DNA from: Patescibacteria group bacterium
GTDB lineage: Bacteria > Patescibacteriota > Minisyncoccia > Moranbacterales > UBA2206
NCBI GenBank assembly: GCA_038063775.1
Contig: JBBTUK010000008.1
Span: 1-48,598, forward strand
Reading direction: 5' to 3'
Length of the DNA stretch: 48,598 bases
Shown here: piece after piece, positions 21,419 through 40,922 of the stretch
Layout: each line of letters opens with the position of its first letter
Numbering within the stretch: the stretch's first letter is position 1
Made by a program: the position numbers and the translations under genes
Notes under the pieces: model-generated
Database searches by the model: none
What the model was told of the DNA's origin: nothing
What the model saw: only the letters and a program-made list of their open reading frames with translations

Positions 21419-21438
21419 TGTATAAAGAAAACTGCCGA

Positions 21439-22050: not shown

Positions 22051-22065
22051 TTTAAAAATATTAAT

Positions 22066-22617
22066 ATGCAAAGAAAAATCATAGCAATACTTGGCTTACC
22101 AGGTTCCGGAAAAACCGAAGTTATAAATTATTTAATGGAAAAATTTAAGTGGCCTAAAGTTTATTTTGGGGATGTTGTTTTTGATGAACTGAAAATAAGG
22201 GGACTGGATATAAATGAAAAAAATGAAAGAATAGTGCGCGAAGATTTACGAAACAAATTCGGAAGATTGCACTTCGCAGGTAAAATAATTGAAAAAATAG
22301 GAAACATTAGGGACGATGCGAATATTTTAGTTGAAAGTTTATATGATTGGCAGGAATATCTGTTTTTTAAAGAAAAGTTTAGAGAAGACTTTATAGCTAT
22401 AGCAGTTTATGCTTCCCCAAAAACTAGATATGAAAGGCTTGGAAAGCGAAAAATAAGGCCACTAACTCTAGGAGAGGCGCAGGGCAGGGACCATGCGCAA
22501 ATAGAAAATATTTTTCAAGCTGGACCTATAGCGATGGCAAACTATACTGTGGACAATGAGGAAACTTTTGAATATCTATACAAACAAATTGACGAAATTA
22601 TCAACAAAATAAAGTAA
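22066..22617 (+). CDS. P-loop nucleoside/nucleotide kinase-like protein
   Basis: Walker A ILGLPGSGKT at the N-terminus. ~180 aa, the size of small (d)NMP / dephospho-CoA-type kinases. Specificity is not inferable. Confidence 0.55.
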   Translation: MQRKIIAILGLPGSGKTEVINYLMEKFKWPKVYFGDVVFDELKIRGLDINEKNERIVREDLRNKFGRLHFAGKIIEKIGNIRDDANILVESLYDWQEYLFFKEKFREDFIAIAVYASPKTRYERLGKRKIRPLTLGEAQGRDHAQIENIFQAGPIAMANYTVDNEETFEYLYKQIDEIINKIK

Positions 22618-22622
22618 AATTT

Positions 22623-23915
22623 ATGGCAAAAATTTTTGTCTATGACGAATTCGGTCCTCAAGATGTGGCTATGATGCAAGCCCTTTATTCCAGAAGCCCG
22701 GAAAGCGTCGAGGTGCATGCGGAAAAAGTCAAGCAGTCCGGATCAGGCAAATTTATGGAAAAGTTTTATGTCGGCTACGGGCATATGAGTATTGCTGACT
22801 GCGGCAGCACGACCCTTTTCATCGAAGGCATAAGCATTCTAGCCGACAAGGCCATCCAGGACTGGCCGCTTTATTCGGGTCAGGAAACCAGCACTCGTTA
22901 CATCGATATGTCTAAGCAGGCGATTATCGACCCCGTGGGTACACCTGAATCCAAAGCTATTCTCAACCGCTGGATGGAGTTCTATACTGGTAATCGTGAA
23001 CGAATGGAGATGTATTTAAAAGAAAAATATCCCAAGAAACCGGACGAGGATGAAGCGGTTTATGGCAAAGCCATAAAGGCGCGGGCTTTTGACAGCCTCA
23101 GAGGATTCTTGCCGGCTGGCATCACGACGCAGCTTAGTTGGCACACCAATCTACGCCAAGCCTGGGATAAGTTATCCTATCTTCGCCACAATCCGGCAAA
23201 AGAAGTGAGAGAAATAGCCGAAGAAATGCTTTTGAAACTCAAAGAAAAATATGCCCATAGTTTCAGTCATGTGCTTATCCCGGAGCAGGAAAATTACCGC
23301 GAATATGCCTCAAAAAATTATTATTATTTCAATCCGGAAGCGTCGTTGGATTTTTCCTTCGAGACTAATATTGAAAGAAAAGAGCTGGAACAATACCAGG
23401 ACATTATCAACAATCGTCCGGAAAAAACCGGGTTGCCGCATTTTTTAACGGAGTTGGGAAATGCCAAATTTGATTTTCTTTTGGATTTCGGATCGTTTCG
23501 CGATATCCAGCGTCACAGGAACGGTGTTTGCCGGATGCCCCTGCTTACGACTAAGCGCGGATTTAATTCTTGGTACCTGGAACAGCTGCCTGACGACTTG
23601 CGAGAAGCCGCTAAAAAATTAATTAAGGAACAAGCCGAATCCATAGGAAGGCTTGCGACAAATGAAATTGAAAGACAGTATTACATCGCGCTAGGCTTTA
23701 ATGTGGCTTGTCGGGTTTCTTATGGCCTTCCAGCCACAGTTTATGTTACTGAACTGCGCTCAGGGCGACCCGTCCATCCGACTCTCAGAAAAATTGCCTT
23801 AAGAATGCACGATGCACTTCGGGAAAAATTTCCGAATCTAAAATTAAATTGCGATCTTAATCCGGACGACTGGGACATCCGCCGGGGGCTTCAGGACATA
23901 ACCGAGAAAAAATAA
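22623..23915 (+). CDS. Long two-module ThyX-like (FAD-dependent thymidylate synthase family) protein
   Basis: The first module has ThyX-like ...SGQETSTRYI and ARAFDSLRGFLPAGITTQLSWHTNLRQ...EVREIAEEM, but DWPL where RHR is expected. The second module carries FRDIQRHRNG. Confidence 0.55.
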   Translation: MAKIFVYDEFGPQDVAMMQALYSRSPESVEVHAEKVKQSGSGKFMEKFYVGYGHMSIADCGSTTLFIEGISILADKAIQDWPLYSGQETSTRYIDMSKQAIIDPVGTPESKAILNRWMEFYTGNRERMEMYLKEKYPKKPDEDEAVYGKAIKARAFDSLRGFLPAGITTQLSWHTNLRQAWDKLSYLRHNPAKEVREIAEEMLLKLKEKYAHSFSHVLIPEQENYREYASKNYYYFNPEASLDFSFETNIERKELEQYQDIINNRPEKTGLPHFLTELGNAKFDFLLDFGSFRDIQRHRNGVCRMPLLTTKRGFNSWYLEQLPDDLREAAKKLIKEQAESIGRLATNEIERQYYIALGFNVACRVSYGLPATVYVTELRSGRPVHPTLRKIALRMHDALREKFPNLKLNCDLNPDDWDIRRGLQDITEKK

Positions 23916-23924
23916 TTAAACCAA

Positions 23925-24614
23925 ATGAAAAAAGGCAAGTTCATCGTTATTGACGGAACAGACGGCAGCGGGAAAGCGACGCAGACAAAATTGCTGGTGG
24001 ATAAACTTAAGAAAAACGACCATAAGGTCAAAACTGTTGATTTCCCCCAGTATGAAAATAATTTTTTCGGTAAAATTGTCGGCCGGTATCTGGCCGGGGA
24101 ATTCGGCGGTGCTTCATCGGTGAGTCCGTATCTGGCTTCGGTTCTATACGCCGCCGATAGATTTGAAACTAAAGAAAAAATTGAAAAGTGGCTGAAAAAC
24201 GGAAATGTTGTTATTGCTGATCGATATGCCAGCTCAAATCAAATTCATCAGGGCGGCAAAATCAGGGACCCTAAAAAAAGAAAGGAATTTCTGAATTGGC
24301 TGGAAGAAATGGAATACAAAGTATTTAAAATTCCGCGGCCGGATGTCAGCATCTATTTAGATGTTCCGATAGAATTCAGTCTCAAGCTTCTTAAGAATAA
24401 ATCAGCGCAAGAACGCAAAAAATATCTGAAAGGCAAAAAAGATATCCATGAAAGTGACCGAAAACATCTGCAAGACGCAAAAAACAGCGCCATAAAGCTG
24501 GTTGAGAGGAATAATAACTGGATAAAAATAGATTGCGTTAAAAAAGGGAAACTTCTGGCAATTGCTGATATAAGCCAAATTATCTGGTCAAAAATAGGAA
24601 AAGTTCTGTCTTGA
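23925..24614 (+). CDS. tmk: Thymidylate kinase
   Basis: FIVIDGTDGSGKATQ P-loop, DRY-type motif (ADRYASS) and a lid region. Confidence 0.9.
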   Translation: MKKGKFIVIDGTDGSGKATQTKLLVDKLKKNDHKVKTVDFPQYENNFFGKIVGRYLAGEFGGASSVSPYLASVLYAADRFETKEKIEKWLKNGNVVIADRYASSNQIHQGGKIRDPKKRKEFLNWLEEMEYKVFKIPRPDVSIYLDVPIEFSLKLLKNKSAQERKKYLKGKKDIHESDRKHLQDAKNSAIKLVERNNNWIKIDCVKKGKLLAIADISQIIWSKIGKVLS

Positions 24615-24639
24615 CTTAGTTTTTAACAAGTAGTATAAT
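24611..24639 (+). promoter_or_regulatory. Near-consensus sigma70 promoter (TTGACT-N17-TATAAT) at the left edge of the metal island
   Basis: TTGACT at 24611-24616 overlaps the tmk stop. TATAAT at 24634-24639. The spacer is exactly 17 nt. Confidence 0.6.
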
Positions 24640-24663
24640 TCAGTCCAGATTAGGGTTCTGCCT

Positions 24664-25035
24664 ATGGAAAAGTCATCTTTAAATAAAATTTCGAAAATAA
24701 TACTTTTGTTTTTAGCCGTGACCCTCATCGGCAGTTTTTGTTTTCAGATCGCTTCAGCCAGTCATAACCATGGCGCGGTGATGCAAAATTTTTCCACGTC
24801 CGGCGGCTCTGCTAAAAATATGATGCCTTGCTGCGAAGAGAATACTAACCACCTGGCGCTTTCCGATCTGCCATCGACAAAAAACCCCTTGCAGTTCATG
24901 AGTCTAATTCTTTTAGTTTTTGCATCAGTAGGCCTAGTTCTGTCTCCAAACATATTTTCCAATTTCGCGTATTCTTTTTCTTCTTTGGCCCCTCCCGGGC
25001 CGGATCTTCTGTTGACGGTTGTCAAAAAAGAGTAA
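24664..25035 (+). CDS. Small two-TM membrane protein with a His/Met/Cys-rich loop (SHNHGAVM...NMMPCCEENTNH)
   Basis: ORF with an N-terminal and a C-terminal hydrophobic helix. It has its own promoter and terminator. No family recognised. Confidence 0.55.
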   Translation: MEKSSLNKISKIILLFLAVTLIGSFCFQIASASHNHGAVMQNFSTSGGSAKNMMPCCEENTNHLALSDLPSTKNPLQFMSLILLVFASVGLVLSPNIFSNFAYSFSSLAPPGPDLLLTVVKKE

Positions 25036-25045
25036 ATTTTTCCTA

Positions 25046-25078
25046 AATCCTCAGCAATCGGATGAGTGAGGATTTTTT
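25046..25078 (+). terminator. Rho-independent terminator
   Basis: AATCCTCA (25046-25053) pairs with TGAGGATT (25067-25074), followed by a T run. Confidence 0.7.
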
Positions 25079-25116
25079 AGTTTACTCCTTAACCAACATT
25101 CAACTGAAATCCATTC

Positions 25117-26856
25117 ATGAGTCAAAAAAATAAAATAATCGTCCCCATCGCGGGAATGCATTGCCGCTCGTGTGAAATGCTTGTTGAAGACAAACTTTCG
25201 GAAATCCCGGAAGTGGAGCAGAGCATTGTCAGCTACAAAAAAGGGACGGCGGAAATTCATTATACGAAGCAAAAACCGAATACGGACGAGATTGAAGAAG
25301 CCATCCGGTCGGCTGGCTATGCCATCGGCGTTTCTTCAGTAAAAAAGCCATTTTTCAGCCGCAACGCCAGCGACTACAAGGATCTGGGAATCTCCCTGCT
25401 GTTTTTGCTGGGCATCTATATAGCCCTAAAAACCCTGGGAATAAACAACATCAAGATTGGCGGGGGATCCAGTCCGACGAGTTTGCCCGTGGTATTTTTG
25501 GTCGGTATAACCGCCGGACTTTCCACTTGCATGGCACTGGTTGGCGGGCTTATCTTGGGAATGTCTGCGCGCCATTCAGAAAAACATCCCGAAGCTACAC
25601 CACTGCAAAAATTTCGACCTCACCTGATTTTCAATTTAGGGCGCGTTTTGTCTTATGCTGTTTTGGGAGGTGTGTTGGGGTCGGCCGGAGCCATTTTCCG
25701 GTTTTCTGGAACAACCTTGGGAGTGATGACAATTCTTGTAGGCGCTGCTATGCTGATGCTGGGATTCAAACTGGTGGGAATTTTTCCCCGCTTGGATCAG
25801 GCCGGCCTTACATTGCCCAAAGGAATCAGCCGTATACTGGGGATAAAGCCCGCCAAAGGCGGACACGAAAAGGAATACAGCCACAGAGGGTCGTTCGCTA
25901 TGGGAGCATTGACCTTTTTTCTTCCGTGCGGATTTACCCAGGTCATGCAATTGTATGCGGTCAGCACCGGAAGCTTTTTACGCGGTGCTCTGATTATGGG
26001 CGTATTCGCCTTAGGCACCGTGCCAGGACTTTTGGGAATTGGAGGGCTTACTTCGGTTGTGCGCGGAATTTTTGCCAAACGCTTCTTCAAGTTCGCCGGA
26101 GTCGTAGTGATTTTTCTCTCTTTTGTAAACATTTCCAATGGCTATACTCTGATGGGGTGGCAATGGGGATCGGCCTTGAGTGCCGAGCAAGATAGCCCGT
26201 CCGAAACGCTCGATGCCAATGTTACTGTCGAAAACGGAGTACAGATAGTGCGAATGAATGAAGTTTCCCGCGGCTATTCTCCGAACAAGTTCACGATCAA
26301 AAAAGATATGCCGGTGCGCTGGATAATCAACGCGACCGATCCTTTTTCCTGCGCTGCGAGCATTATGATCCCAAGTCTTGATATCCGTAAAAATTTAAGG
26401 TCCGGAGAAAATATCATTGAATTTACGCCGCGCGATGCCGGAAGATTGGTTTTTTCCTGCGGAATGGGCATGTATGTCGGAGTGTTCAATGTAAAAGATA
26501 CTCCCGGACTCGATGGTTCTACTGCTGAAAAAGCTTCTCCTCCCGTCGATTCTTCTCCGGCTAACAGCGTACAAGTAATTAAAGCAGTCTTTACCTATTC
26601 CGAGACTACCAATGAAGACATAACGCCCAACGTCTTTAGGGTAAAAGCCGGAATGCCTGTGCGATTTGAAGTGGATGCGCGAGACGATGGACAAGGGTGC
26701 ATGAGCACGATTATGGTTCCAGGTCTCTATAATACTCCGCAAATTCTGGATAAAGGAAGCAAGATTGTGATGGAATTCACTCCCAGGAAACCCGGCTCAT
26801 ACAATATTACCTGTGCCATGGGATTGCCACGAGGCGTGATTACTGTTACAAGATAG
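25117..26856 (+). CDS. Fusion protein: HMA metal-binding domain, multi-pass permease (TauE/SafE or DsbD_2-like), and two tandem cupredoxin-like domains
   Basis: N-terminal IAGMHCRSCE. About 8 hydrophobic helices with FFLPCGFTQ. Two C-terminal repeats end in EFTPRDAGRLVFSCGMGMYVGVFNV and EFTPRKPGSYNITCAMGLPRGVITV. Confidence 0.7.
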   Translation: MSQKNKIIVPIAGMHCRSCEMLVEDKLSEIPEVEQSIVSYKKGTAEIHYTKQKPNTDEIEEAIRSAGYAIGVSSVKKPFFSRNASDYKDLGISLLFLLGIYIALKTLGINNIKIGGGSSPTSLPVVFLVGITAGLSTCMALVGGLILGMSARHSEKHPEATPLQKFRPHLIFNLGRVLSYAVLGGVLGSAGAIFRFSGTTLGVMTILVGAAMLMLGFKLVGIFPRLDQAGLTLPKGISRILGIKPAKGGHEKEYSHRGSFAMGALTFFLPCGFTQVMQLYAVSTGSFLRGALIMGVFALGTVPGLLGIGGLTSVVRGIFAKRFFKFAGVVVIFLSFVNISNGYTLMGWQWGSALSAEQDSPSETLDANVTVENGVQIVRMNEVSRGYSPNKFTIKKDMPVRWIINATDPFSCAASIMIPSLDIRKNLRSGENIIEFTPRDAGRLVFSCGMGMYVGVFNVKDTPGLDGSTAEKASPPVDSSPANSVQVIKAVFTYSETTNEDITPNVFRVKAGMPVRFEVDARDDGQGCMSTIMVPGLYNTPQILDKGSKIVMEFTPRKPGSYNITCAMGLPRGVITVTR

Positions 26857-26896
26857 CGAAGCAACAATAAGTTATTAATTATTAAAAAGTTCAATT

Positions 26897-26911
26897 TTAG
26901 GAAATTCCTAA
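26897..26911. promoter_or_regulatory. Perfect 15-bp palindrome TTAGGAAATTCCTAA upstream of copZ-copA (candidate operator)
   Basis: Read directly from the sequence, 21 nt upstream of the copZ ATG. Confidence 0.4.
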
Positions 26912-26931
26912 GGCGGAACTTTAAAAAACAT

Positions 26932-27141
26932 ATGAACGAATTAAGATTCAAGCTAGAAGGCCTGCACTGTCAGTCCTGCGTCAAAATATCCCAGATGAAT
27001 ATCGGGGATATCTCTGGCGTAAAAAATGTTGAAATTGATTTAACTACAGGTGACGGTAGATTGGAAGCTGAGAGAGAGGTAAGGTTTGATGAAGTTGTAG
27101 AAGCCCTTAAAAATACCAATTACACTGTCACAAAAGAATAA
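26932..27141 (+). CDS. copZ: CopZ-like HMA-domain metallochaperone
   Basis: 69 aa with the LEGLHCQSC metal-binding loop and a ferredoxin-like HMA pattern. Confidence 0.8.
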   Translation: MNELRFKLEGLHCQSCVKISQMNIGDISGVKNVEIDLTTGDGRLEAEREVRFDEVVEALKNTNYTVTKE

Positions 27142-27144
27142 TTA

Positions 27145-29544
27145 ATGAATAGCGCAAAGAAAAATAAAAACGAGCGGGTAAATCTTTCTATTTTCGGAAT
27201 GCACTGCGCATCCTGCGCTTCTCTTATTGAGCGCTCGCTCAAAAAAACACCGGGTGTAACCCAGGCCAATGTTAATTTTGCCGCGGAAAAAGCGTCGGTC
27301 GTTTTTGATGCGCGGGTGTCGAACATAAAAGCTTTAGTCAACGCAGTAACCGAAGCTGGATATCGGGCGGAAACAGTGGATGCAAAAGATATGGAATATG
27401 AAGCGAAAAAGCGGGAAAAAGAAATTTCCGATTATTTTAACAAATTCATATTCAGTTTCTTCTTAAGTCTGCCAATGCTGTATTTTATGCTTTTTGAATT
27501 TTTTAAAGGCATTCCAGGATCCATTCGTTGGGCTCCATATATTGGAGTTTTCTCGCTACTACTGACTATTCCGGTACAATTTATTATCGGCGCGGGATTT
27601 TATAGGGGCGGGTGGTCAGCGCTCAAAATGAAGACATTCAATATGGATAGCCTGATCGCTATCGGAACTTCTACCGCTTTTTTCTACAGTTTGATCAACC
27701 TCACTGCTTATGCAGTGAAAAATAATTCCCTCATCGGGCTTGGAGGAGAAAAAATTCCCGACTTGTATTTTGAAACGGCGGCCTTCCTCATAACTTTCGT
27801 AATTCTGGGAAAATGGCTGGAAATCAGAACCAAGGGAAAAACTTCCGATGCCATCAAAAAACTAATGGGACTCCAAGCCAAGACGGCGCGGGTGATACGC
27901 TTGGGAGCCACAGATGATATTCCCATTGATGAAGTGATCCACGGAGACATCGTCATTGTTCGTCCAGGAGAGAAAATTCCGGTGGACGGAAAAATCATCA
28001 AAGGCTCATCCGCGGTGGACGAATCCATGATCACTGGAGAAAGTTTGCCGGTGGAAAAACAGGTCGGGGACATGGTAGTCGGCGGAACGGTCAATAAAAC
28101 CGGTAGCTTTGAGTTTGAAGCGACGCGCGTCGGATCTGAAACTGCCTTGGCGCAAATCATAAGGCTGATTGAGGAAGCCCAAGGCTCCAAAGCGCCTATC
28201 CAGAATTTCGCCGATAAAATTTCCGCTTGGTTCGTGCCGGCCGTTATCGGCATCGCGGCTCTGACTTTTGTAATATGGTTCTTGGTGCTGGGCGAAAGCC
28301 TTACGTTTTCCCTTATGGCTTTTACGGCGGTCATCGTGATTGCTTGTCCTTGCGCTCTGGGATTGGCTACCCCCACTTCGCTTATGGTTGGAACCGGCAA
28401 GGGAGCTGAATACGGAATATTGATCAAGGGCGGGGAACCGCTGGAAGCGGCCTGTTACATAAACACGGTAATTTTTGATAAAACCGGAACTCTGACCCAC
28501 GGAAAGCCCAAGGTTACAGATGTGGTGGAATTCGGCGCGACAAACAAGGTTGAAATTTTGGCGATAGCCTCGAGCCTCGAAAAACTTTCTGAACATCCGC
28601 TGGCTGAAGCTATCTACACTTATGCCCAGGAGCAATCCGTAGTTTTCAAAGAGGTGCGTGATTTCAAGGCTGTACCCGGACATGGCGTGCAGGGGCGTCT
28701 TGGCGAGGTTGAATATTTTTTGGGAAACCGTAAACTAATCACCAATGTTTTAGGAATGTCCGTGGACAAAATTGATTCCGAAATAACCCGGCTGGAAGAG
28801 CAGGGGAAAACAGCTATGATTCTGGCAACAAAGACAGGTATTCTGGGCGCGGTAGCAGTGGCGGATACGGTCAAAGAGACTTCCCGCGAGGCGGTTGAAA
28901 AATTAAAGCGCCGGGGAATCGAAGTTTATATGATTACCGGTGATAACGCGCGAACCGCCAATGCGATTGCCAAGCAAGTCGGCATTGAGAATGTTTTGGC
29001 GGAAGTTTTGCCGGAAGACAAAGCCAATGAAGTAAAAAAGCTTCAGGATCTTGGTAAAAAAGTAGCGATGGTCGGGGACGGGATCAATGATGCTCCCGCT
29101 TTGGCGCAATCGGACTTGGGAATCGCCATGGGCTCCGGAACGGACGTAGCGATGGAAGCGGGGGATATCGTCATTATTAAGGATGATCTGCGGGACGTGG
29201 TGACGGCCTTTCAATTATCCAAAGAAACAATGGCGAAAATAAAGCAGAATATGTTTTTTGCCTTGTTTTATAACATTATCGGAATTCCCATTGCGGCGAG
29301 AATTTTCATGGGTCTTGGGCTGGTTCTCAAGCCGGAATTGGCGGGTTTGGCTATGGCTTTGAGCTCCATATCAGTGGTAAGCAATTCTTTGCTGCTGCGC
29401 CTATTCCGGCCTAATCGGAAAAACTATGTTTCCATGATCGCTCCGGCAGTAATGGTGATAATTTTTACTTTTATGTTTTTCGAATTTGCGCGCTTCAGTT
29501 CTGGAATGGAAAAAAATGAATCTAATCTTGTTTCCCCCCGGTAA
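27145..29544 (+). CDS. copA: Copper(I)-translocating P1B-type ATPase
   Basis: [44 protein letters not shown] and MALSS transmembrane signatures. Confidence 0.92.
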
Positions 29545-29589
29545 TTATCAGGTTAAATAAGTATTAATTTAATTCAAATACATAGATCT

Positions 29590-30591
29590 ATGGAAAAAAG
29601 CGAACAAGAGGCAGAGCTAGAGCCAAAAGAAATAACCGAGCCAATAGAAAAAAAGAGAGACTCGAACAACCAAGCCATAGTCGCTATGTTGGTGATTCTT
29701 ATCGCCGTAGTGGGAACTTGGAAGTACTTGGGAAAGGGGAGCATTGTTCAAAGGCTCAAGGAAAAATATTTTACCGAGGGTAACAAGAAAAGTTTAGCCA
29801 GTAGCAGTGAGACAGCGAGTGAGGACACATCTTCGCTGGTGAAAGAAGTTTTGCCGGCTGAAGGAGTAGTTTTGCCGGTAACTTGGAACGATCTTGGAAA
29901 GCAGCTGGTGGACAAGGGAGTGATTGACGCGCAGAAATTTGAAGCAATCTACGCAAAAAGAGGCGGGTTAAGCGAAAGCGATAAGAAATTGCTTAACGGA
30001 ACAGACAACGATAAAATAAAAATTACCCAAGAGAATGCCGGAACGCTGCTTAACTTGCTTTGGGCCTTCGGCCTTGGGAATAAAAATACCATTTTAGAAA
30101 AAGGCCCCATGACTGATCCGCAATATGGAGGCGCCGGAAAGTTTGCTTCGACGGGTGGCTGGACAATAGCCACGGGCAATGCCATGGATCATTACAGCAA
30201 GCATAAATTCGTGACGCTGACTTCCGATCAGCAAGCTATGGTTGAAAGGGTGAGCAAAGGAATCTTTCGCCCTTGCTGCGGAAATTCCACTTATTTTCCC
30301 GATTGCAATCATGGTATGGCCATGCTCGGACTTCTGGAAATTATGGCTAGTCAAGGCGTATCGGAAGCGAACATGTACAAAGCGGCTCTGGCGGTTAATT
30401 CCTACTGGTTTCCGGACACCTACCTAACTTTGGCTAGTTATTTCGAGAAGCAGAAGAATATTGTTTGGGACAAGGTCGACCCCAAAGAAGTTCTAGGCGC
30501 GAATTATTCCAGCTCTTCCGGGTACAGAAATATTCTGCAAAGCGTTGATCCTGTGTCGCTTCAGCAAAAGGGCGGCAGTTGCGGAGTGTAA
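29590..30591 (+). CDS. Uncharacterised membrane-anchored protein with PCCGNSTYFPDCNHG motif and C-terminal GGSCGV
   Basis: One N-terminal TM helix (AIVAMLVILIAVVGTW), a Ser-rich linker and a ~250-aa domain with four clustered Cys. No family recognised. Confidence 0.6.
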   Translation: MEKSEQEAELEPKEITEPIEKKRDSNNQAIVAMLVILIAVVGTWKYLGKGSIVQRLKEKYFTEGNKKSLASSSETASEDTSSLVKEVLPAEGVVLPVTWNDLGKQLVDKGVIDAQKFEAIYAKRGGLSESDKKLLNGTDNDKIKITQENAGTLLNLLWAFGLGNKNTILEKGPMTDPQYGGAGKFASTGGWTIATGNAMDHYSKHKFVTLTSDQQAMVERVSKGIFRPCCGNSTYFPDCNHGMAMLGLLEIMASQGVSEANMYKAALAVNSYWFPDTYLTLASYFEKQKNIVWDKVDPKEVLGANYSSSSGYRNILQSVDPVSLQQKGGSCGV

Positions 30592-30609
30592 GCATTAATT
30601 GAAATCATC

Positions 30610-31482
30610 ATGGACGTATTAATTGTCGCTTCACTCATAACCGCTTTTATCGCCGGCATGGCGGCGCTTTTCGCGCCGTGCTGCATCTCGGTTCTGTTGC
30701 CTTCATATCTCGGCTCTATTTTTCGGGAAAAATACAAGGTGGTGATAATGACCGCTATATTTTTTCTGGGGATACTAACGGTATTTTTACCGATCGGGCT
30801 GGGATTTTCCGCTCTGGCGCAATTCTTTAAGCAATATCACAATGTTGTTTTTCTGCTGGGCGGAGGATTTTTATTAGCGTTAGGAATAATAATCCTGACT
30901 AAAAACACTTTTTCCCTGCCATGGTCTTTTCATCCGACGCTCCAAAAGCACAACGCTGGATCAATCTATGTTTTGGGCATTTTTTCCGGCGTGGCAACGA
31001 CTTGTTGCGCGCCGGTGCTGGCTGGAGTTATGGCGCTGGCTGTTCTTCCGGGATCGATTTTTTGGGGAGCTATTTATACCCTCATGTATGTTCTGGGCAT
31101 GGTAGCCCCGCTATTTCTAATCGCTTTATTTTTAGACAAAACTAACATTACGAAAAAAATGATGACTTTCCGTAAATCAGTAAATTTCAATTTCGGAAAA
31201 AAAATCATTAGCCTCACAGTCTCGGAAATTGTTTCCGGACTGATGTTTCTTGTGATGGGTCTGGTGATAATTTATTACGCTTTCATGAATAGATTAACAG
31301 TCCATGCTGATTACCAAGTCACCATCAATATTTACTTTGCGAAATTGCAAAAAGCCATAATGTCTGTCCTCGCTCCTGTGCCATCATTTGTCTGGGCGAT
31401 TTTGCTTGCAATTTTATTTTTCTATATCGCCAAGATAATCATTAAGCTAATTAATTATTTTAAAAAATATGAAAAAAAATAA
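30610..31482 (+). CDS. CcdA/DsbD-core-like thiol:disulfide electron-transfer membrane protein
   Basis: Polytopic. FAPCCISVLLP sits in the first helix and TTCCAPVLAG in a later helix, at the positions where CcdA carries its two redox Cys. Confidence 0.65.
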   Translation: MDVLIVASLITAFIAGMAALFAPCCISVLLPSYLGSIFREKYKVVIMTAIFFLGILTVFLPIGLGFSALAQFFKQYHNVVFLLGGGFLLALGIIILTKNTFSLPWSFHPTLQKHNAGSIYVLGIFSGVATTCCAPVLAGVMALAVLPGSIFWGAIYTLMYVLGMVAPLFLIALFLDKTNITKKMMTFRKSVNFNFGKKIISLTVSEIVSGLMFLVMGLVIIYYAFMNRLTVHADYQVTINIYFAKLQKAIMSVLAPVPSFVWAILLAILFFYIAKIIIKLINYFKKYEKK

Positions 31483-32107
31483 TTACAAAGGAAATGTGAG
31501 CGTTCCAACGGTAATTATAATCGTGCTCCTGACGATCATAATTGTCGGCTTTGCCATGGAAAAATTTGGCAAGCCAAGCGAAGGAGGAGCAAGTCCTGGC
31601 GATGGTGCCAAAACCGGAAACACCGCGGGTGACTCTTCTAAATCTTTAGTGGGTAAGTCTGCGCCAACCTTTTCGCTGGCCGACCGTGATGGCAATGTGT
31701 ATACCAACGATAGTCTAAAAGGCAAAAGAGTGGTGCTTTTTTTCAATGAGGGTTTGATGTGCTATCCGGCCTGCTGGAACCAGATGATGGAATTTCCCAA
31801 AGACAAGCGGTTTGATCAAAGCGACGTGGCGGTTTTTTCAGTCGTAACGGATACTAAAGAAGCCTGGCAAAAAGCCATCGAAAAACTGCCGGAAATGGGA
31901 ACAGTCAAGGCTTTGTATGACACTAGCGGAATCGTATCCAAGGATTTTCAAATGATGAGCGTACCTTCTTCTATGCACGCCGGTTCAATGGCGGGCCACA
32001 CCTATGTCGTTATGGATAAAGACGGTGTTGTGCGCTATGTACTGGATGATCCAAAAATGGCCATAAACAACGGAACTATTTATTCGGAGATTGAAAAGCT
32101 CAAGTAA
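31469..32107 (+). CDS. Membrane-anchored thioredoxin-fold protein (TlpA/ResA/AhpC-TSA-like)
   Basis: N-terminal TM helix. GKSAPTFSLADRDG...KGKRVVLFF...CYPAC (CxxC). Confidence 0.7.
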   Translation: MKKNNYKGNVSVPTVIIIVLLTIIIVGFAMEKFGKPSEGGASPGDGAKTGNTAGDSSKSLVGKSAPTFSLADRDGNVYTNDSLKGKRVVLFFNEGLMCYPACWNQMMEFPKDKRFDQSDVAVFSVVTDTKEAWQKAIEKLPEMGTVKALYDTSGIVSKDFQMMSVPSSMHAGSMAGHTYVVMDKDGVVRYVLDDPKMAINNGTIYSEIEKLK

Positions 32108-32161
32108 TATTTTCGCGACATGGCTGTATTAGTTGTATGCTAACACAATAAATTAACAAAT

Positions 32162-32431
32162 ATGATGTATAATTGGGGAAATATGATGGGCGGGGGCTAT
32201 GGATCTGGTTTTGGCTTGTTTGGGATGCTTTTCGGATGGTTTTTCACGATCTTGTTTGTGGGGTTGTTTATCTGGGGAATCATCACCCTTGTTAGGTGGA
32301 TGTCAGAACAAGGGTCAGGAAAGGATGCGAAGAAAGAGAACTCGGCGATTGCGATTCTCAAAGAACGCTACGCCAAAGGTGAGATTTCCAAGGAAGAGTT
32401 TGAAGAAAAGAAAAAAGACATTGTCTTATGA
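32162..32431 (+). CDS. Small membrane protein with C-terminal SHOCT domain
   Basis: Gly/Met-rich N-terminus, one TM helix, then ILKERYAKGEISKEEFEEKKKDI. Confidence 0.75.
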   Translation: MMYNWGNMMGGGYGSGFGLFGMLFGWFFTILFVGLFIWGIITLVRWMSEQGSGKDAKKENSAIAILKERYAKGEISKEEFEEKKKDIVL

Positions 32432-32471
32432 TTAGCAAAAGCAAATAAGCAGATTATTTTAATCAAAATTT

Positions 32472-32855
32472 ATGGAATTCGATTACACCACAGCCACAGC
32501 TAAGATCTTTGATTCGGCGGTCCAAGACGTGCAGGATGAAATCGCCAAAGCCGGCATGCGCGTTTTGTATGTTCACGATGTGCAGAAAACTTTAGGCGAG
32601 AAAGGATTTGAAAGAGAACCTTTTAAGATTATTGAATTTTGCAGCGCAAAATTTGCCAGTGATTTTTTGGATATTGACATCAAGATCGGACTTTGTCTGC
32701 CTTGCAAGATAAATGTGTATGCAAAAAGCGGGCAAACTTTCATTTCCGGCATGCGGCCGATCATCCTGCCGCATTTTTTCCCGCAAGCGGATTTGGGCGA
32801 GAAGCCGAAAGAAATTGACCAAATCATCCAAAACATTATTAATAACGCAAAATAA
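32472..32855 (+). CDS. DUF302-family protein
   Basis: ~127 aa. The pattern ...FKIIEFCSAKFA...GLCLPCKINVY...G.T.IS..RP matches my recollection of the DUF302 consensus. Confidence 0.6.
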   Translation: MEFDYTTATAKIFDSAVQDVQDEIAKAGMRVLYVHDVQKTLGEKGFEREPFKIIEFCSAKFASDFLDIDIKIGLCLPCKINVYAKSGQTFISGMRPIILPHFFPQADLGEKPKEIDQIIQNIINNAK

Positions 32856-32865
32856 CCTATAGCCT

Positions 32866-33603
32866 ATGAAAAAGTTACTTTTTATCACAACTATTTTTAT
32901 TTTAGGTCTTACTTTTCCGACTTTTTCTTTTGCTCAAGGAATGATGGGTTTTCCGAGCTTATCTCTCAATGACGCTGCTATACAAAGCCAGCAACAAGAG
33001 GAACAAGAAGGCAAGAAGCTTCTTGACGACTTAAGCAACAAAACAGCTGATTGTTCCCAACTCAAAGATACAGACTTTGAGAAAATTGGTGAATATTTTA
33101 TGGGTCAATCCATTGGAGATACCTCCAGGCACATCCTCATGAATGAAATGATGAAAAGAATGATGGGTGAGAAAGGCGAAGAGCAAATGCACGCAGTCAT
33201 GGGCAAGCGGTTGAGCGGTTGCGACACTTCAGCCGCGTTTCCATCGCAGGATGTTGGCTTTATGCCAATGATGAATATGTTTGCCCAATATGGAGCCCCA
33301 GGTTCTCGTACGGGGATGATGGGAGGATGGTCGTCTCCCCTTGGGTCTAATCAGACAAATAATTCTATGATGAATTTTGGACTTTCATCTCTTGGCGGAT
33401 TTGGCTGGATTTTCATGATTCTTTGGTGGATTTTGATCATCGTAGGGGTCATCATGCTTATCAAACGGCTCACAGCGCAATCTCACGGCTCAAATAACCT
33501 GCATGATAAAAAAAAGTCCCCGCTTGAAATTCTGAAAGAACGCTACGCCAAAGGCGAGATTGATAAAAAAGAATTCGAGGAGAGAAAGAAAGATTTAATT
33601 TAA
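32866..33603 (+). CDS. Secreted or membrane Met-rich protein with C-terminal SHOCT domain
   Basis: Signal peptide and multiple M-x-M / MMG runs (MNEMMKRMMGEKGEEQMHAVMG, FMPMMNMF, GMMGGW). A TM helix, then ILKERYAKGEIDKKEFEERKKDLI. Confidence 0.7.
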   Translation: MKKLLFITTIFILGLTFPTFSFAQGMMGFPSLSLNDAAIQSQQQEEQEGKKLLDDLSNKTADCSQLKDTDFEKIGEYFMGQSIGDTSRHILMNEMMKRMMGEKGEEQMHAVMGKRLSGCDTSAAFPSQDVGFMPMMNMFAQYGAPGSRTGMMGGWSSPLGSNQTNNSMMNFGLSSLGGFGWIFMILWWILIIVGVIMLIKRLTAQSHGSNNLHDKKKSPLEILKERYAKGEIDKKEFEERKKDLI

Positions 33604-33605
33604 AG

Positions 33606-34052
33606 GTGAAAATTTTTTCCATCATAATCAGGTCGTTTCTATATGGACTTTTGGCAGTTTTTCTGATGCTGCTGTTTTATTTTTCCTTGATTTCTCTGAT
33701 TTCCGGATGGGGATTTGCCCAGTCGCAATTCAGGGAATTTTGGTATTTCGTCATCGCTCTATCGGTTGGATTTGGAATTCAGATCGGACTTTATACTTAT
33801 CTCAAAAATTCAATCCATAAAGTTTCCGGAAAAGTCGTGGCGGTTTCGGGAGGAACTTCCACTTTCGCGATGGTTTCCTGCTGCGCGCACTATTTGGCCA
33901 ATGTGCTACCCGTTTTGGGAGTAACGGGCGTTTTGACGGTGATCGGCCAATATCAAACGCAACTTTTTTGGGTTGGGATAGTTTCTAATTTATTGGGGAT
34001 CACCTATGTAACATCTAAAGTAATTAAGTATAAAAAGTATGCCAAAAGTTAA
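33606..34052 (+). CDS. Four-helix membrane protein with an intramembrane vicinal Cys pair (AMVSCCAHYL)
   Basis: GTG start. Hydrophobic profile read by eye. No family recognised. Confidence 0.55.
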   Translation: MKIFSIIIRSFLYGLLAVFLMLLFYFSLISLISGWGFAQSQFREFWYFVIALSVGFGIQIGLYTYLKNSIHKVSGKVVAVSGGTSTFAMVSCCAHYLANVLPVLGVTGVLTVIGQYQTQLFWVGIVSNLLGITYVTSKVIKYKKYAKS

Positions 34053-34515
34053 AATTGCAATCATTGCCGTATTGGCGGCAATTGTTATTATTCAAGCTGC
34101 GAATTACATAAAAAATTATTCCAGGAAGACAAATTCAACCGGATCAAATAAATCAGTTCCACAATCCGAAAACCAAAACCCATCTTCTGGACTTGAAGCG
34201 CAAACCAACGGCGAAGGGCCGGTTTCCGTCCAAGTCACTCCTGCGGATCTGGCTCAAGACAAATGGAAATTTGAAATCGTTTTAAATACTCATTCCGTTG
34301 AACTGGATTACGACCTGACCCAACTCGTGGTCCTGGTTGATTCTTCCGGCAATCAATACAAACCGGCGGCTTGGGAAGGGGATCCTCCAGGCGGCCATCA
34401 TCGGGAAGGAGTCTTGATTTTTGAAGCGCCCAATCCTAAACCGTTATCTATAATTCTCCAAATAAATAATATCGGAAGCATTGAAAGAAGAGCTTTTTTT
34501 TGGAATATAAAATAA
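34039..34515 (+). CDS. Membrane-anchored extracytoplasmic protein with a GDPPGGHHREG motif
   Basis: N-terminal TM helix, low-complexity linker and a ~90-aa beta-rich domain. Overlaps the previous gene by 14 nt. Confidence 0.55.
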   Translation: MPKVKIAIIAVLAAIVIIQAANYIKNYSRKTNSTGSNKSVPQSENQNPSSGLEAQTNGEGPVSVQVTPADLAQDKWKFEIVLNTHSVELDYDLTQLVVLVDSSGNQYKPAAWEGDPPGGHHREGVLIFEAPNPKPLSIILQINNIGSIERRAFFWNIK

Positions 34516-34566
34516 AAAAGCTTATTTTTTAGCTTGTGGCCCAATCGAAAGAACTGAATTAAAAAA

Positions 34567-34595
34567 ATGACTTATTTTGCCAACCGGACTATAAT
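34567..34595 (+). promoter_or_regulatory. Sigma70-like promoter (ATGACT-N17-TATAAT) for the second ATPase
   Basis: ATGACT at 34567-34572 and TATAAT at 34590-34595. Confidence 0.45.
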
Positions 34596-34622
34596 AATAG
34601 CAAAAGCAATTTAAATAAAAAT

Positions 34623-36983
34623 ATGGATAAAAAAGAAAATAAATCCGGTTGCGACTGCGGAAAAGCCTGCCATTGCTGCGAGGCGGAAAAGCTGACCGTA
34701 ACTTCCGGAAGCGAAATGGAAGCTAAGCAATATGAATATAATTTGCAGGGAAAACTTTCTCATAATGCGCACATCTCGCATGAGATGGCGCCTTCTGCGA
34801 GTGAAATGATTTATACTTGCATAATGCATTCCGAGGTCAGGCAAAAACAGCCCGGGAAATGCCCCAAATGCGGTATGGAACTAGTATTGGCTTCCGCTGA
34901 AACTAATAAGGCGGGCGAGGCTGGAAAAAAAGGAGAAGAACACGCGCCCCATGATATGAAAAAGATGAGCCATATGGATCATGAGGCGGCGATGACCAAT
35001 CCAGTTATGGCCAAGGCAATGGAAGCGGACATGCGTCGCCGGTTTTGGATTTCCTTGATTTTATCCGTTCCAATTTTTCTTTATTCTCCGGTAGGAGTAA
35101 ATTTTTTTAAATTGAATTTGCCGGCGCCTATTCCCATAAACTGGATTCTTTTTATTCTTACCACGCCGATTGTTTTCTGGGCTGGTTCGATTTTTATAAC
35201 CGGTACTTACTATTCTCTCCGGAGCCGGAAACTTAATATGTCTGTTTTGATCACAACGGGCGTTTTGGCCGCTTATTTATTCAGCGTCTTTTTGACGCTC
35301 TCGGGCGGAGAAGAAACTTTTTACGAAGCTGCGGCTCTGCTTGTGACATTTGTGCTTTTTGGCCATTGGATGGAAATGAAATCAAGAAGGGGAACATCAG
35401 ACGCGCTCCGTGCTCTTTTTGATCTGGTTCCTCCGCAGGCTAAAGTCATCCGCGAGGGCAAAGAAATAACGCTTCCGAGCTCTGAAATAGTCAACGGCGA
35501 TATTGTAATTCTCCGGCCGGGCGATAAGGTTCCGGTAGACGGGGATATTACAGATGGAGAAACAAATGTGGATGAATCACTGATTACGGGAGAGTCCTTA
35601 CCTGTGACAAAGAAAGTCGGAGATAAAGTCATCGGAGGGTCGGTCAACCAGACTGGCGCTGTCAAATTCAAAGCCACGCAAGTGGGCTCTGAAACAGTTC
35701 TGGCTCAAATCATAAAACTTGTGGAAACCGCTCAGAATTCCAAGGCGCCCGGTCAGCGCATTGCGGATAAAGCCGCGGCCTGGCTGGTAGTGCTGGCTAT
35801 CGGATCGGGCATATTGACCTTTTTGGGCTGGTATTTTGTGGCCGGGTCTTTATTTATAACTGCTCTGACTTTTGCCGTTTCCACGATTGTCATAGCTTGT
35901 CCTGACGCGCTCGGGTTGGCGACCCCGACCGCTGTGGCCGTTGGAACGGGGATTGGAGCCAAAAATAACATTCTCATCAAAGACGCTATGACCTTGGAAG
36001 GGGCTTCTAAAATACATGCCATTGTTTTGGATAAAACTGGAACTCTAACCAAAGGCAAGCCGAAAGTAACAGATGTAATTGTTGCCAATGAATTTTCCAA
36101 GGAAGAAGTTTTGCGGTTGCAGGCTTCCGTAGAATCCGGTTCCAATCATCCAATCGCCAAATCCATAATTGAAGAAGCTACAAAGCTTAAATTAAGTCTG
36201 GCAACTTTAAAATCTTTTGAATCAATTGCGGGATATGGCCTTAAGGCTCAGGTGGAGGGAAAGAATGTTTTGGTCGGAACGGAAAAATTGCTCAAAGACA
36301 ACGGCGTTCCTATTGGCCAGGAAATTCAACAAATTTTGGAACGCTTGGGAAACGAAGGAAAAACAGTGAGCCTTCTTTCAATCGACAGAGCATATGCCGG
36401 CGTTGTGGCGGTGGCCGATACGATCAAGCCAAGCGCTAAAAAAACTATCGCAGCTCTTTCCGAGCTTGGCATTGAAGTGGCAATGATAACCGGCGACAAC
36501 AAAAGAGTGGCGGAGGCAGTAGGAAGGCAGCTGGGAATAGAGCGCATATTTTCCGAAGTCTTGCCCCGAGAAAAAGCTAACTATGTAAAAAAACTTCAAG
36601 ATGAGGGGAAATTCGTGGCCATGGTGGGCGACGGCATAAACGACGCGCCGGCTTTGGCGCAATCCGATATCGGAATTGCCATCGGAGCCGGGACCGATGT
36701 CGCCATTGAAACTGCCAACATTGTTTTAATGAAGTCTGATCCCTATGACATTGTCGCTGCCATAAGATTAAGCAAAGCCACGGTCAGAAAAATGAAGCAA
36801 AATCTTTTTTGGGCAGCTATTTACAATATTTTGGCCATTCCTGTGGCGGCCGGAGTATTTTATAAATCCTTCGGCCTGTCGCTTCGGCCGGAAATGTCTG
36901 CGCTTCTCATGTCTGCGTCATCAATCATTGTCGCGACCAACGCCGTTCTTCTGAAAGGAGTATCCTCGCAGTTAAAAAAATAA
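34623..36983 (+). CDS. CopB-like P1B-type heavy-metal ATPase with a CPD (not CPC/CPH) transmembrane motif
   Basis: N-terminal [35 protein letters not shown] zinc-ribbon-like metal-binding domain. His/Met-rich stretch, [16 protein letters not shown] (TGT CCT GAC at 35898-35906), [22 protein letters not shown]. Confidence 0.85.
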
Positions 36984-37006
36984 TGATAAAAAAAGGAGGT
37001 GAAAAG

Positions 37007-37261
37007 ATGATTAATACAAAACACTTGCTCAAAGTAGCTTCCATTTGGATAAGCGCGGTTTATGTCGTCTGCTATCTTGGAGTGGCTCTTTTTCCGGCAT
37101 CTCGCCAATTGTATATGCGATATGCTCTTCATGCTGATGTCGCACTCCGGTCTGATTATTTCGGCTTCGGATACTTTATTTCCGGCCTGGTTATATGGAA
37201 TGTTGTAGCCCTGCTCAACGCCGGTTTTTTTGCTTATTTATTCAATACAATTAAAAAATAG
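37007..37261 (+). CDS. Small two-TM membrane protein
   Basis: A strong SD (GGAGG, 36995-36999) lies 7 nt before ATG 37007, so this start is preferred over the track start at 36983. Confidence 0.6.
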   Translation: MINTKHLLKVASIWISAVYVVCYLGVALFPASRQLYMRYALHADVALRSDYFGFGYFISGLVIWNVVALLNAGFFAYLFNTIKK

Positions 37262-37384
37262 CGGCCTAAGTAAAGTTTACGGTTTTGGGTTTTCTCGCGA
37301 TAAAGCTCCCGAAATAAAAGGATTCTTCCAACTTTCAAAGAGCTGTGTTAGAATTAAATTGATTCAATAATAATCAAGCGTTTT

Positions 37385-37714
37385 ATGGATTTTGAAGATT
37401 ACCAGAAGAAATCAAGAAAAACCGCCTTATATCCTGATGTTGGAAAAAATTATGTTTATCCAACTATTGGGCTGGCTGGGGAAACAGGGGAAGTTTCGGA
37501 AAAAATAAAAAAAGTTATCCGGGACAAAGGCGGCAAAATTGACGATGAAACCAGGAAAATGATAAAAAAAGAGCTTGGAGACGTCTTGTGGTATGTTTCG
37601 CAATTAGCCAGCGAGTTGGGCTTGTCATTGGACGAAATCGCGGAAAAAAACATAGAAAAACTTTATAGCCGCTTGGAGCGGGGCAAATTGCAGGGAAGCG
37701 GGGATAATCGGTAG
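37385..37714 (+). CDS. MazG-like nucleoside triphosphate pyrophosphohydrolase (single domain)
   Basis: GLAGETGEV...K..IRD and ELGDVLWYV motifs of the all-alpha NTP-PPase family. Confidence 0.8.
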   Translation: MDFEDYQKKSRKTALYPDVGKNYVYPTIGLAGETGEVSEKIKKVIRDKGGKIDDETRKMIKKELGDVLWYVSQLASELGLSLDEIAEKNIEKLYSRLERGKLQGSGDNR

Positions 37715-37727
37715 AAAAAATATCAAT

Positions 37728-37808
37728 ATGTCTAAATATATTCCAGTTATCGGAATGGAGATTCACCCCGTAAAATCCCGAGGCGGGATCACGGGGCAAG
37801 CGTCTTAA
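37728..37808 (+). pseudogene. Ghost gatB 5' fragment: 13 GatB-like codons (MSKYIPVIGMEIH) running into a hairpin. 26-codon upstream ORF.
   Basis: 10 of 13 residues match the real GatB N-terminus (MSKYKPTIGLEIH). The stop TAA (37806-37808) lies 3 nt before the real ATG. Confidence 0.7.
37766..37796 (+). repeat. 31-nt palindromic element CCCCGTAAAATCCCG-AGG-CGGGATCACGGGG
   Basis: CCCCGT/ACGGGG and ATCCCG/CGGGAT stems. Followed by CAAG + 11 nt + ATG, the same layout as at miaB. Confidence 0.85.
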
Positions 37809-37811
37809 ATT

Positions 37812-39281: not shown

Positions 39282-39352
39282 TAATAATATCGGGTGTGCA
39301 TAAGTCGTATTGCTTGAAATATCACAAGATGTTAGAATGGACAAAACATGAA

Positions 39353-39450
39353 TCCCGTTACAAAATTCACTTAAGACTTGAAATAACGGGATTTTCGCAA
39401 CAGTTTTTGTTTTTAATGCCATTAAATCGTATATCAAATTCGTAACGGGA
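39353..39450. mobile_element. MITE-like element (TCCCGTTAC... terminal inverted repeats) with TGAA duplication and an extra internal arm
   Basis: TCCCGTTACAAAATTC (39353-39368) against the reverse complement of 39435-39450, TCCCGTTACGAATTTG: 13/16. TGAA at 39349-39352 and 39451-39454. An internal TAACGGGATT (39384-39393) pairs with 39351-39360. Confidence 0.6.
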
Positions 39451-39572: not shown

Positions 39573-39590
39573 TCCGAAAGGAGGGGCCAT

Positions 39591-40921: not shown

Positions 40922-40922
40922 T

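Follow-up and report, generated by a model that had tools for sequence, protein, structure and literature searches.

A vertically inherited, probable copper-homeostasis locus rich in vicinal cysteine pairs in a Patescibacteria group bacterium

The first 48,598 nt of contig JBBTUK010000008.1 (assembly GCA_038063775.1) of a Patescibacteria group bacterium, hereafter the window, carries between tmk (23925-24614) and mazG (37385-37714) a block of about 12.6 kb in which 14 open reading frames (ORFs), here named g1 to g14 in order, all lie on the + strand, separated by gaps of at most 124 nt and overlapping in two gene pairs. Genomes in this group are very small, about 1 Mb, and encode few accessory functions. 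An annotation made earlier from the letters of this DNA (the original prediction) had listed fourteen co-oriented genes from tmk to mazG; all 14 ORFs were recovered at the same positions, and profile searches against Pfam and NCBIfam upheld nearly all of its by-eye domain calls, with g1, g5, g11 and g12 matching no family in either database. We consider it rather probable that the block is a vertically inherited copper-homeostasis locus of the candidate phyla radiation (CPR), assembled from recurring modules, transcribed from at least two promoters (g1-g12 and g13-g14) and working in the manner proposed below. The modules are g2 with CopZ and CopA; g5 with a CcdA-type protein and a redoxin; a SHOCT/DUF302/SHOCT set; and g11 and g12 with a CPD-type ATPase, followed by a DUF5676 protein.

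The product of g4 (27145-29544; 799 aa) bears every hallmark of a P1B-1 Cu(I)-exporting ATPase (CopA), namely an HMA domain with CASC (E = 4.5e-17) and the CPC, YN, MALSS and FDKTGT motifs, and it scored 638 bits with the TIGR01511 model against a cut-off of 397. Directly upstream, g3 (26932-27141; 69 aa) encodes a CopZ-type HMA metallochaperone with CQSC, and is preceded by g2 (25117-26856; 579 aa), in which an N-terminal HMA domain (CxxC; E = 9e-12) is joined to a polytopic, permease-like DsbD_2 region (7.8e-34) and to two C-terminal cupredoxin-like domains (Cupredoxin_1, 3.3e-20 in two stretches), each of which has two Cys and Met and lacks the His ligands. The second P1B ATPase, g13 (34623-36983; 786 aa), has a Cys-rich, His/Met-rich N-terminus with an HMBD domain, CPD in the fourth transmembrane segment (TM4) and the motifs YN and MSASS, and scored 590 bits with TIGR01511, the general copper-ATPase model. 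The original description of this pump as CPD-type and CopB-like held for the CPD motif but not for CopB in the strict sense, since P1B-3 (CopB) pumps have CPH in TM4 and MSxST in TM6, and the YN/MSASS motifs of g13 are of P1B-1 type. A CPD variant with MSGSS has been called novel for three atypical Rhizobiales ATPases (PMC5552934), and none of the CPD-type pumps has been characterised. The last gene, g14 (36983-37261; 92 aa), encodes a DUF5676 protein with two TM segments and is kept at the locus end in a sister genome.

Between the two pumps, g5 (29590-30591; 333 aa) encodes a member of an undescribed family, consisting of one N-terminal TM anchor and a mainly helical domain. More than 6898 relatives were found in 90% clusters, almost all of them unnamed or 'hypothetical' CPR proteins sharing 55-85% identity, and a profile search gathered 725 clusters at 50% identity; the family is encoded by at least 583 GTDB species representatives, and all of its members lie in CPR-type loci. 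In an alignment of 36 diverse sequences, C229, C230, D238-C239-N240-H241-G242-M243-A244-M245 and C331 were invariant, the last within a Gly-rich C-terminal tail (GGxCGV). The family is characterised by an N-terminal anchor, some 250 aa of helical domain and invariant residues comprising four Cys, a His and two Met, all of which are present in g5. In the AlphaFold (AF2) model the domain is confidently predicted and mainly helical, with a predicted local distance difference test score (pLDDT) of 84.5 and values above 90 across most of residues 80-320, and a Foldseek search of the PDB with this model returned no fold match (best E 1.8, TM score at most 0.2); PDB sequence searches with g5, g11 and g12 gave nothing meaningful either. 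Judging by the positive-inside rule applied to its single hydrophobic anchor, the g5 domain would be situated on the outer face of the membrane.

Longer proteins with a g5 domain also occur. Ten were inspected, nine of them with N-terminal extensions in which Pfam recognised no known domain, and one long protein carries an unrelated C-terminal BNR region. In other lineages (P0383, P0393, P0433 and others; L088:8001-9545, L089:410-1924), the g5 domain is preceded in the same protein by a polytopic membrane domain, some 200 aa long, which has an intramembrane GCPxCG motif and no Pfam match, and these fusion genes adjoin COX2-like cupredoxins, rhodanese, DUF1573/CcmH, a PCYCGC-domain protein and P1B ATPases. 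The CPxCG domain was considered as a homologue of g11 and rejected (hhalign probability 1% over 20 columns).

Downstream of g5, g6 (30610-31482; 290 aa) encodes a CcdA/DsbD_TM-type membrane protein with two doubled-Cys motifs, FAPCC in TM1 and ATxCCAPVLAG in TM4, which were invariant in 30/30 and 33/33 complete homologues, respectively. Its Pfam DsbD_TM score of 24.6 bits fell just under the cut-off of 27.1, and homologues in three related loci (L004, L006 and L007) passed. Moreover, g6 aligned over 170 residues with the CcdA of T. thermophilus (5VKV; E = 2.9e-8), the first Cys of each CC pair falling on a catalytic Cys of 5VKV in TM1 and TM4. The start of g7 (31469-32107; 212 aa) overlaps the end of g6 by 14 nt, and its product is a membrane-anchored thioredoxin-fold protein of the Redoxin/AhpC-TSA type (Pfam Redoxin, 62 bits against a cut-off of 26.6). 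The motifs MCYP[AS]C (20/20 homologues), SSMHxGxxPGH and DDPxM were invariant, as were H170 and H177. Of the TlpA-like thioredoxin that had been proposed for g7, the fold thus remains and the CxxC active site does not, an invariant CxxxC standing in place of the WCxxC expected of a TlpA/ResA-type protein. Despite this CxxxC and the distal His, g7 gave no match to the Sco model SCO1-SenC (PF02630) at E <=0.01. The nearest solved structures are those of S. pneumoniae Etrx (PDB 2YP6 and 4HQZ; E about 5e-5), with a CxxC motif one residue shorter. A gene for a methionine sulfoxide reductase, MsrB (SelR), lies at 44341-44781 of the window, 7 kb downstream of the locus; CcdA-thioredoxin relays supply Msr enzymes in streptococci.

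The doubled cysteines are not confined to g6. Six CC dipeptides (PCCE, PCCG, PCCI, TCCA, SCCA and HCCE) occur in five of the 14 locus proteins, as originally counted, against 0.5 expected from the Cys frequency of the block itself (Poisson P about 1e-5), and no CC occurs in the 10,800 aa encoded by the remaining 40 ORFs of the window. Loss of these motifs among homologues had been named in advance as grounds for giving up the idea; the motifs proved invariant, with a doubt in one case. The sixth pair, HCCE, is found in a Cys-rich stretch at the extreme N-terminus of g13 (34623-34700), and because the CPD pump of locus L006, 77% identical to g13, is 90 residues shorter and has neither an HMBD Pfam hit nor the C.MH/C.MD motif, this pair may not be conserved, in contrast to the other five.

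The remaining proteins are small and mostly membrane-bound. The first, g1 (24664-25035; 123 aa), has two hydrophobic segments around the loop SHNHG...MMPCCEENTNH, belongs to no known family and has relatives only in the sister loci L001 and L002, in which C26, M53, M54, C56, C57 and H63 are conserved. A Met/Gly-rich N-terminus, one TM segment and a SHOCT domain make up g8 (32162-32431; 89 aa), which is followed by the DUF302 protein g9 (32472-32855; 127 aa) and by g10 (32866-33603; 245 aa), with a signal-like N-terminus, a Met-rich outer region, one TM segment and a C-terminal SHOCT. In the polytopic membrane protein g11 (33606-34052; 148 aa), likewise of no known family, the CCxH motif lies within a hydrophobic segment as TSTxAM[IV]SCC[AT]HY, invariant in 20/20 homologues; of its 1419 relatives, some are fused to metal-binding HMBD or YHS domains. 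The genome to which the window belongs was assembled from groundwater, and the g11 sequence is identical to that of Patescibacteria group bacterium AAB487_00970 and to Hainich H41 contigs. The start of g12 (34039-34515; 158 aa) overlaps the end of g11, and its product combines a TM anchor with an immunoglobulin (Ig)-like beta-sandwich (model pLDDT 86.1) for which Foldseek returned generic Ig-fold matches only; H85, W112 and G119-H120-H121-R122 are invariant. Searches of the literature on copper loci in CPR genomes, on DUF302 and SHOCT in connection with copper, and on CcdA proteins with vicinal Cys yielded nothing specific.

The genomic company of g5 was examined in 80 species loci, in which ORFs were called within 10-kb flanks and assigned by BLASTP to the window proteins and a few reference neighbours. 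A P1B ATPase was present in 62 of these loci, many of the ATPase-less ones ending at contig boundaries, and g6 or the DsbD-like membrane protein x260 in 59. By our own estimate, chance would place a P1B ATPase within 20 kb in a few per cent of cases, given a genome of about 1 Mb with one or two pumps. DUF1573 (48 loci), CsoR (32), the g11+g12 pair (17), g7 (15), g2-like ORFs (14) and DUF302 (9) followed. The pumps comprised 22 of the CPC/MxxSS, 19 of the CPH/MSxST and 12 of the CPD/MxxSS type. Immediately upstream of g5, 52/80 loci have x260, x170, x125 (a WCSHC thioredoxin) or g6. Moreover, a packed block g5-g6-g7-g11-g12(-DUF302)...ATPase recurs in L011, L016 and L044, with csoR upstream on the same strand. 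The gene order at 29590-34515 in the window, for which a neighbourhood comparison had been suggested at the outset, is therefore a variant of a recurrent arrangement. The neighbour x170 (170 aa), absent from the window, occurs in 17/80 loci (for example L003:9450-9962 and L006:14391-14897), often directly upstream of g5; it is an uncharacterised vicinal-Cys protein in which M36, H44, C85, H89 and M95 are invariant and DCC(x)E is found at the C-terminus.

These loci also identify the metal. Of the 32 loci with csoR, 25 have a TACCC-N(2-6)-GGGTA core, and in the csoR upstream regions that were read the -35 and -10 hexamers usually enclose ATACCCC-N-GGGGTAT, which is the classical operator of Cu(I)-CsoR. 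HMA-DsbD_2 proteins (COG2836) have further been inferred to be members of the CsoR regulon in gut Firmicutes (PMC4938975). On the strength of the full P1B-1 signature of g4, of CsoR and its box in the related loci, and of this link between HMA-DsbD_2 proteins and CsoR, the metal is copper, not mercury. The Hg(II) handling entertained in the original prediction was not borne out, in that MerA, MerR, MerT and MerP are all missing from the locus and the NCBIfam Mer hits cover the HMA domain only, far below their cut-offs (MerTP 46.6 vs 180; MerP 26.9 vs 92.6). The CPR csoR promoters (L003-L087) were very uniform in layout, with TTGAC(A), ATACCCC-N3-5-GGGGTAT and an overlapping TAT(A)AT -10 element, and this layout could be used to probe the phylum for the regulon.

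The inheritance of the locus was read from a sister genome (L001, a 605-kb contig), which shares the upstream flank (dCMP deaminase, AAA protein, ThyX and tmk) as well as the downstream flank (MazG, GatB, MiaA and ThrRS) and carries g1-g7 and the DUF5676 gene g14 at the equivalent site. Window and sister DNA are colinear over 19616-32114 and 36990-44203, with identities of 72-81% in the metal genes and 75-86% in the flanks, and the sole differing segment is 32115-36989 (g8-g13). In its place, next to the g7 homologue on its downstream side, the sister genome encodes a membrane-anchored 185-aa cupredoxin (L001:12502-13059) with a complete CuA-type motif (H...CDKFCGKGHNQM; Cupredoxin_1/COX2), followed by a 343-aa GILT/DsbA-like protein. 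Another metagenome (L090) contains the same contiguous block as the window, consisting of SHOCT, DUF302, SHOCT, g11, g12, a 230-aa protein, an HMBD ATPase and an 84-aa protein. Because g1-g7 and g14 are syntenic and have diverged about as far as their flanks, and because the L090 block is contiguous, the locus is best described as a modular hotspot that is chromosomal and vertically inherited and in which a single cassette, g8-g13, has been swapped. The guanine-plus-cytosine (GC) content of the locus, 44.4% against 41.5% for the rest (+2.9 points), lies within the between-gene spread of the window; the impression of GC-richer genes was right as to direction and did not extend to a deviant composition. 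Integrase, transposase and other mobility domains were absent from the Pfam scans of the locus proteins, and no boundary repeats around the block or around g8-g13 and no adjacent tRNA were found, in keeping with the original observation that integrases and repeat boundaries were missing; the 86-nt repeat D1 is merely the two SHOCT coding segments.

As for regulation, domain scans found no regulator domain in any of the 14 proteins, and no CsoR homologue or helix-turn-helix (HTH) protein was detected elsewhere in the window, so that the reported lack of a visible regulator was corroborated. That this lack is remarkable was not, since 48/80 related loci are likewise without CsoR in the fetched flank. 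The 48.6-kb window also had no match to the operator TACCC-N(2-6)-GGGTA, and membership of a CsoR regulon in the strict sense is therefore not indicated here. The two best sigma-70-like sites of the region are located precisely in the gaps preceding g1 and g13, namely the promoter-like elements P1 (24611-24639, + strand; TTGACT-17-TATAAT, 11/12 matches) and P2 (34567-34595, + strand; ATGACT-17-TATAAT, 10/12 matches), the latter in a 108-nt gap. Inside the P1 spacer lies an imperfect palindrome, ACTTaGTT-TTT-AACAAGT (24614-24631), of which there is no second copy. At the P1 position of the sister genome the sequence reads ACTTtGCT-TTT-AGCAAGT, with both arms changed and the dyad kept; because such changes on both arms preserve the dyad, a different repressor is hinted at, and the palindrome, seen in two independent sequences, offers a lead to a putative operator for a non-CsoR regulator or repressor encoded elsewhere. 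Between g1 and g2 a hairpin is followed by a U-run (25045-25075, + strand; -10.3 kcal/mol, z = -1.72); it is weak and possibly represents a weak terminator or attenuator. Rfam detected two tRNAs in the window and no regulatory RNA.

On the observed gene content, motifs, conservation, synteny and co-occurrence with copper genes we build the following scheme, in which we infer every biochemical step, the direction of electron and metal flow, and the operon structure. Copper efflux by CopZ, CopA and the CPD pump can be predicted safely from homology. CopZ (g3) would hand cytoplasmic Cu(I) to CopA (g4) for export, and the second, CPD-type pump g13 would be aided by g11, the membrane protein with CCxH, and by g12, the Ig-like surface protein with its three His. 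In parallel, g6 would carry cytoplasmic reducing power to the anchored redoxin g7 at the outer face, and g7 would hold the four invariant Cys of g5 in the reduced state. Reduced g5, with its Cys3/His/Met cluster and flexible Cys-bearing tail, might then bind or buffer Cu(I), hand it on, or repair thiols that copper has damaged, and g2 and the Met-rich SHOCT proteins might provide additional copper-binding capacity at the membrane. The reductant-driven thiol pathway of the original prediction therefore survives in part: in a locus for a thiophilic metal, unannotated members are indeed tied to a membrane thiol-transfer protein and a thioredoxin-fold protein on the outer face, the association of g5 with P1B ATPases (62/80 loci) and DsbD-type membrane proteins (59/80) pointing the same way, while its mechanism stays at the level of the scheme given here and mercury drops out. 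CPR bacteria, to our knowledge, generally have no c-type cytochromes, and a role of the CcdA-redoxin pair in cytochrome maturation is for this reason unlikely; the partner constantly seen with the CcdA is g5.

A further-reaching proposal, which we advance tentatively and would not yet call probable, is that g5, the doubled-Cys CcdA (or x260 with a thioredoxin) and the CxxxC redoxin constitute an unrecognised, phylum-wide extracytoplasmic Cu(I)-thiol system. Its core would be a new fold with a Cys3-His-Met copper site and a Cys-bearing C-terminal swinging arm, and the CC pairs would make the CcdA carry metal, or metal as well as electrons.

Several points weigh against copper homeostasis by this scheme. 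No copper sensor is visible, and copper induction is hence assumed. The promoter calls use a consensus of E. coli type; hits numbered 19 against 22 expected, and because this total is not above chance, the calls derive from position, the two best hits being the only ones in suitable intergenic places. In g7, CxxxC is unusual for a reductase and recalls the Sco copper site, and the doubled Cys could make g6 a permease for thiophilic metals instead of an electron carrier. Finally, g5-type proteins also adjoin CuA-type cupredoxins (L001, L088 and L089), which fits copper delivery better than defence.

These last points lead to the alternative of cuproprotein maturation, in which g6, g7 and g5 would be the CPR counterpart of CcdA-TlpA-Sco/PcuC, reducing and loading extracytoplasmic cupredoxin or CuA centres, with CopA-type pumps providing the metal. 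The CuA-type cupredoxin directly after g7 in the sister genome, the g5 fusions beside COX2-like cupredoxins (L088 and L089), the two cupredoxin-like domains of g2, and the Sco-like combination of CxxxC and an invariant downstream His in g7 all speak for it, and the TlpA-Sco-PcuC pathway is an established precedent (PMC6669012). However, the window encodes no CuA-type protein, the cupredoxin domains of g2 are without His ligands, proteins like the 185-aa cupredoxin occur in L001 and L002 only, among 87 loci, and SCO1-SenC fails to match g7; furthermore, CsoR-repressed operons with efflux-type ATPases are a hallmark of detoxification. We regard maturation as unlikely.

Alternatively, the CC membrane proteins (g6, g11 and perhaps g1) could be MerT/MerC-like permeases, and not electron carriers, in which vicinal thiolates would take Cu(I) or Ag(I) across the membrane for delivery to g7 (a Sco-like CxxxC/His site), g12 (a His3 site) and g5. 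The ATxCCAPVL motif of g6 resembles the CC motif in TM1 of MerT, and DsbD_2 relatives include metal permeases. The four invariant intramembrane Cys of g6, the CCxH of g11, the fusion of g11 relatives to cytoplasmic HMBD and YHS domains, and the metal-site spacing of the g7 CxxxC are consistent with such transport. Against this, g6 aligns Cys on Cys over 170 residues with an authentic electron-transferring CcdA and its translation is coupled to that of a thioredoxin-fold protein, a pairing classical for electron relays; loci without g6 have a single-Cys DsbD-like protein and a canonical WCSHC thioredoxin in its stead, and no Mer family model matched outside HMA domains. Transport of this kind appears decidedly doubtful to us. 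Least of all do we favour the recent horizontal insertion of a Hg/Ag/Cu resistance island between tmk and mazG, as the word "island" had suggested: a metal-gene block amid housekeeping genes, its slightly raised GC content and the absence from the sister genome of g8-g13, contiguous in L090, would fit, but a composition inside the range of the window, the lack of integrase, transposase, tRNA target, boundary repeats and mer genes, the sister synteny of g1-g7 and g14 with flank-like divergence, and the exclusive occurrence of g5 relatives in CPR-type loci make it highly improbable.

Hundreds of Patescibacteria species retain a large copper locus, and the proteins most conserved in it, such as g5 with 55-70% identity across the phylum, are unstudied. 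Once their roles were shown, g5, the doubled-Cys CcdA, the CxxxC redoxin and the g11/g12/CPD trio would be new parts of bacterial copper handling. Such work would test the conversion of a CcdA scaffold from electron to metal transfer, would explain how surface thiols are protected from copper in episymbionts without an outer membrane, and would assign a function to several thousand 'hypothetical' database entries.

Elsewhere in the window, a [NiFe]-hydrogenase-like cluster with maturation genes extends over 5865-12817, with HypC, HypD and HypE (5865-8202), a small subunit (9374-10156) and a large subunit (11206-12465) recognised by eye; HypA (12542-12817) gave a weak Pfam hit, and between the two subunit genes is an ORF (10119-11102) for which Pfam gave a hit to matrixin (Peptidase_M10). 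Adjacent genes for tRNA-Ile(GAT) and tRNA-Ala(TGC) occupy 19128-19285 on the - strand, beside groES/groEL; this pair is usually located in the 16S-23S spacer. The GC-rich stretch at 16.9-18.6 kb was considered as rRNA and rejected, as it encodes GroEL, and no rRNA was found anywhere in the window.

Among known systems, the CsoR-CopZ-CopA efflux operons of Firmicutes are matched by the ordinary CopZ and CopA of g3 and g4, by the COG2836-type HMA-permease core of g2, and by CsoR with its canonical operator in the related CPR loci; they differ in that the window has neither csoR nor a CsoR box, g2 has two additional cupredoxin-like domains, and ten extra genes are present. With P1B-3 (CopB) pumps and the rhizobial CPD subtype may be compared the His/Met-rich N-terminus of g13 and its CPD motif, the latter known from the three rhizobial ATPases, but g13 bears an HMBD and lacks the CPH and MSxST that define CopB. 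The intramembrane CC pairs of g6 and g11 recall MerT, MerC and MerF, whereas Mer models match nothing beyond HMA, and MerA, MerR and MerP are missing. CcdA-TlpA-Sco/PcuC systems likewise combine a membrane reductant relay with a thioredoxin-fold CxxxC/His protein outside, and CuA-type cupredoxins occur near g5-g7 in relatives; in contrast to those systems, g7 has no SCO1-SenC match, the window has no cytochrome oxidase or PcuC, and related loci have CsoR and efflux ATPases. Etrx proteins are extracellular thioredoxins of a monoderm, tethered to its membrane and reduced by CcdA. The CcdA-Etrx system of S. pneumoniae provides the closest solved relatives of g7, but Etrx has CxxC and serves methionine sulfoxide reductase, whereas g7 has CYPAC and a copper context.

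In the Scs (suppressor of copper sensitivity) system, the DsbD-type ScsB feeds the thioredoxin-fold ScsC and the membrane-bound ScsD, which also bind Cu(I) (PMC10907172, PMC3322552, PMC8900818). The copper-linked envelope thiol-redox logic of ScsABCD in Salmonella, Proteus and Caulobacter is similar to that of g6, g7 and g5 among copper genes, and the resemblance is one of logic only: no ScsB- or ScsC-type domain was among the Pfam and NCBIfam hits of the 14 proteins, no dedicated Scs profile having been run. In contrast to the three-domain ScsB, g6 is a minimal doubled-Cys CcdA, and g7 is a CxxxC Redoxin where the Scs proteins are DsbA/DsbG-like with CxxC; g5 has no counterpart in Scs, and the module lies inside CopA/CsoR operons of a CPR host that is monoderm-like. 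Taken as a whole, the locus belongs to an already known kind, a copper efflux locus with an envelope thiol-redox arm. New to it, and undescribed in Pfam, NCBIfam, the PDB and the literature searched, are the g5 family, the CcdA with CC at both catalytic sites, the CxxxC redoxin, the trio of g11, g12 and the CPD pump, and their phylum-wide combination.

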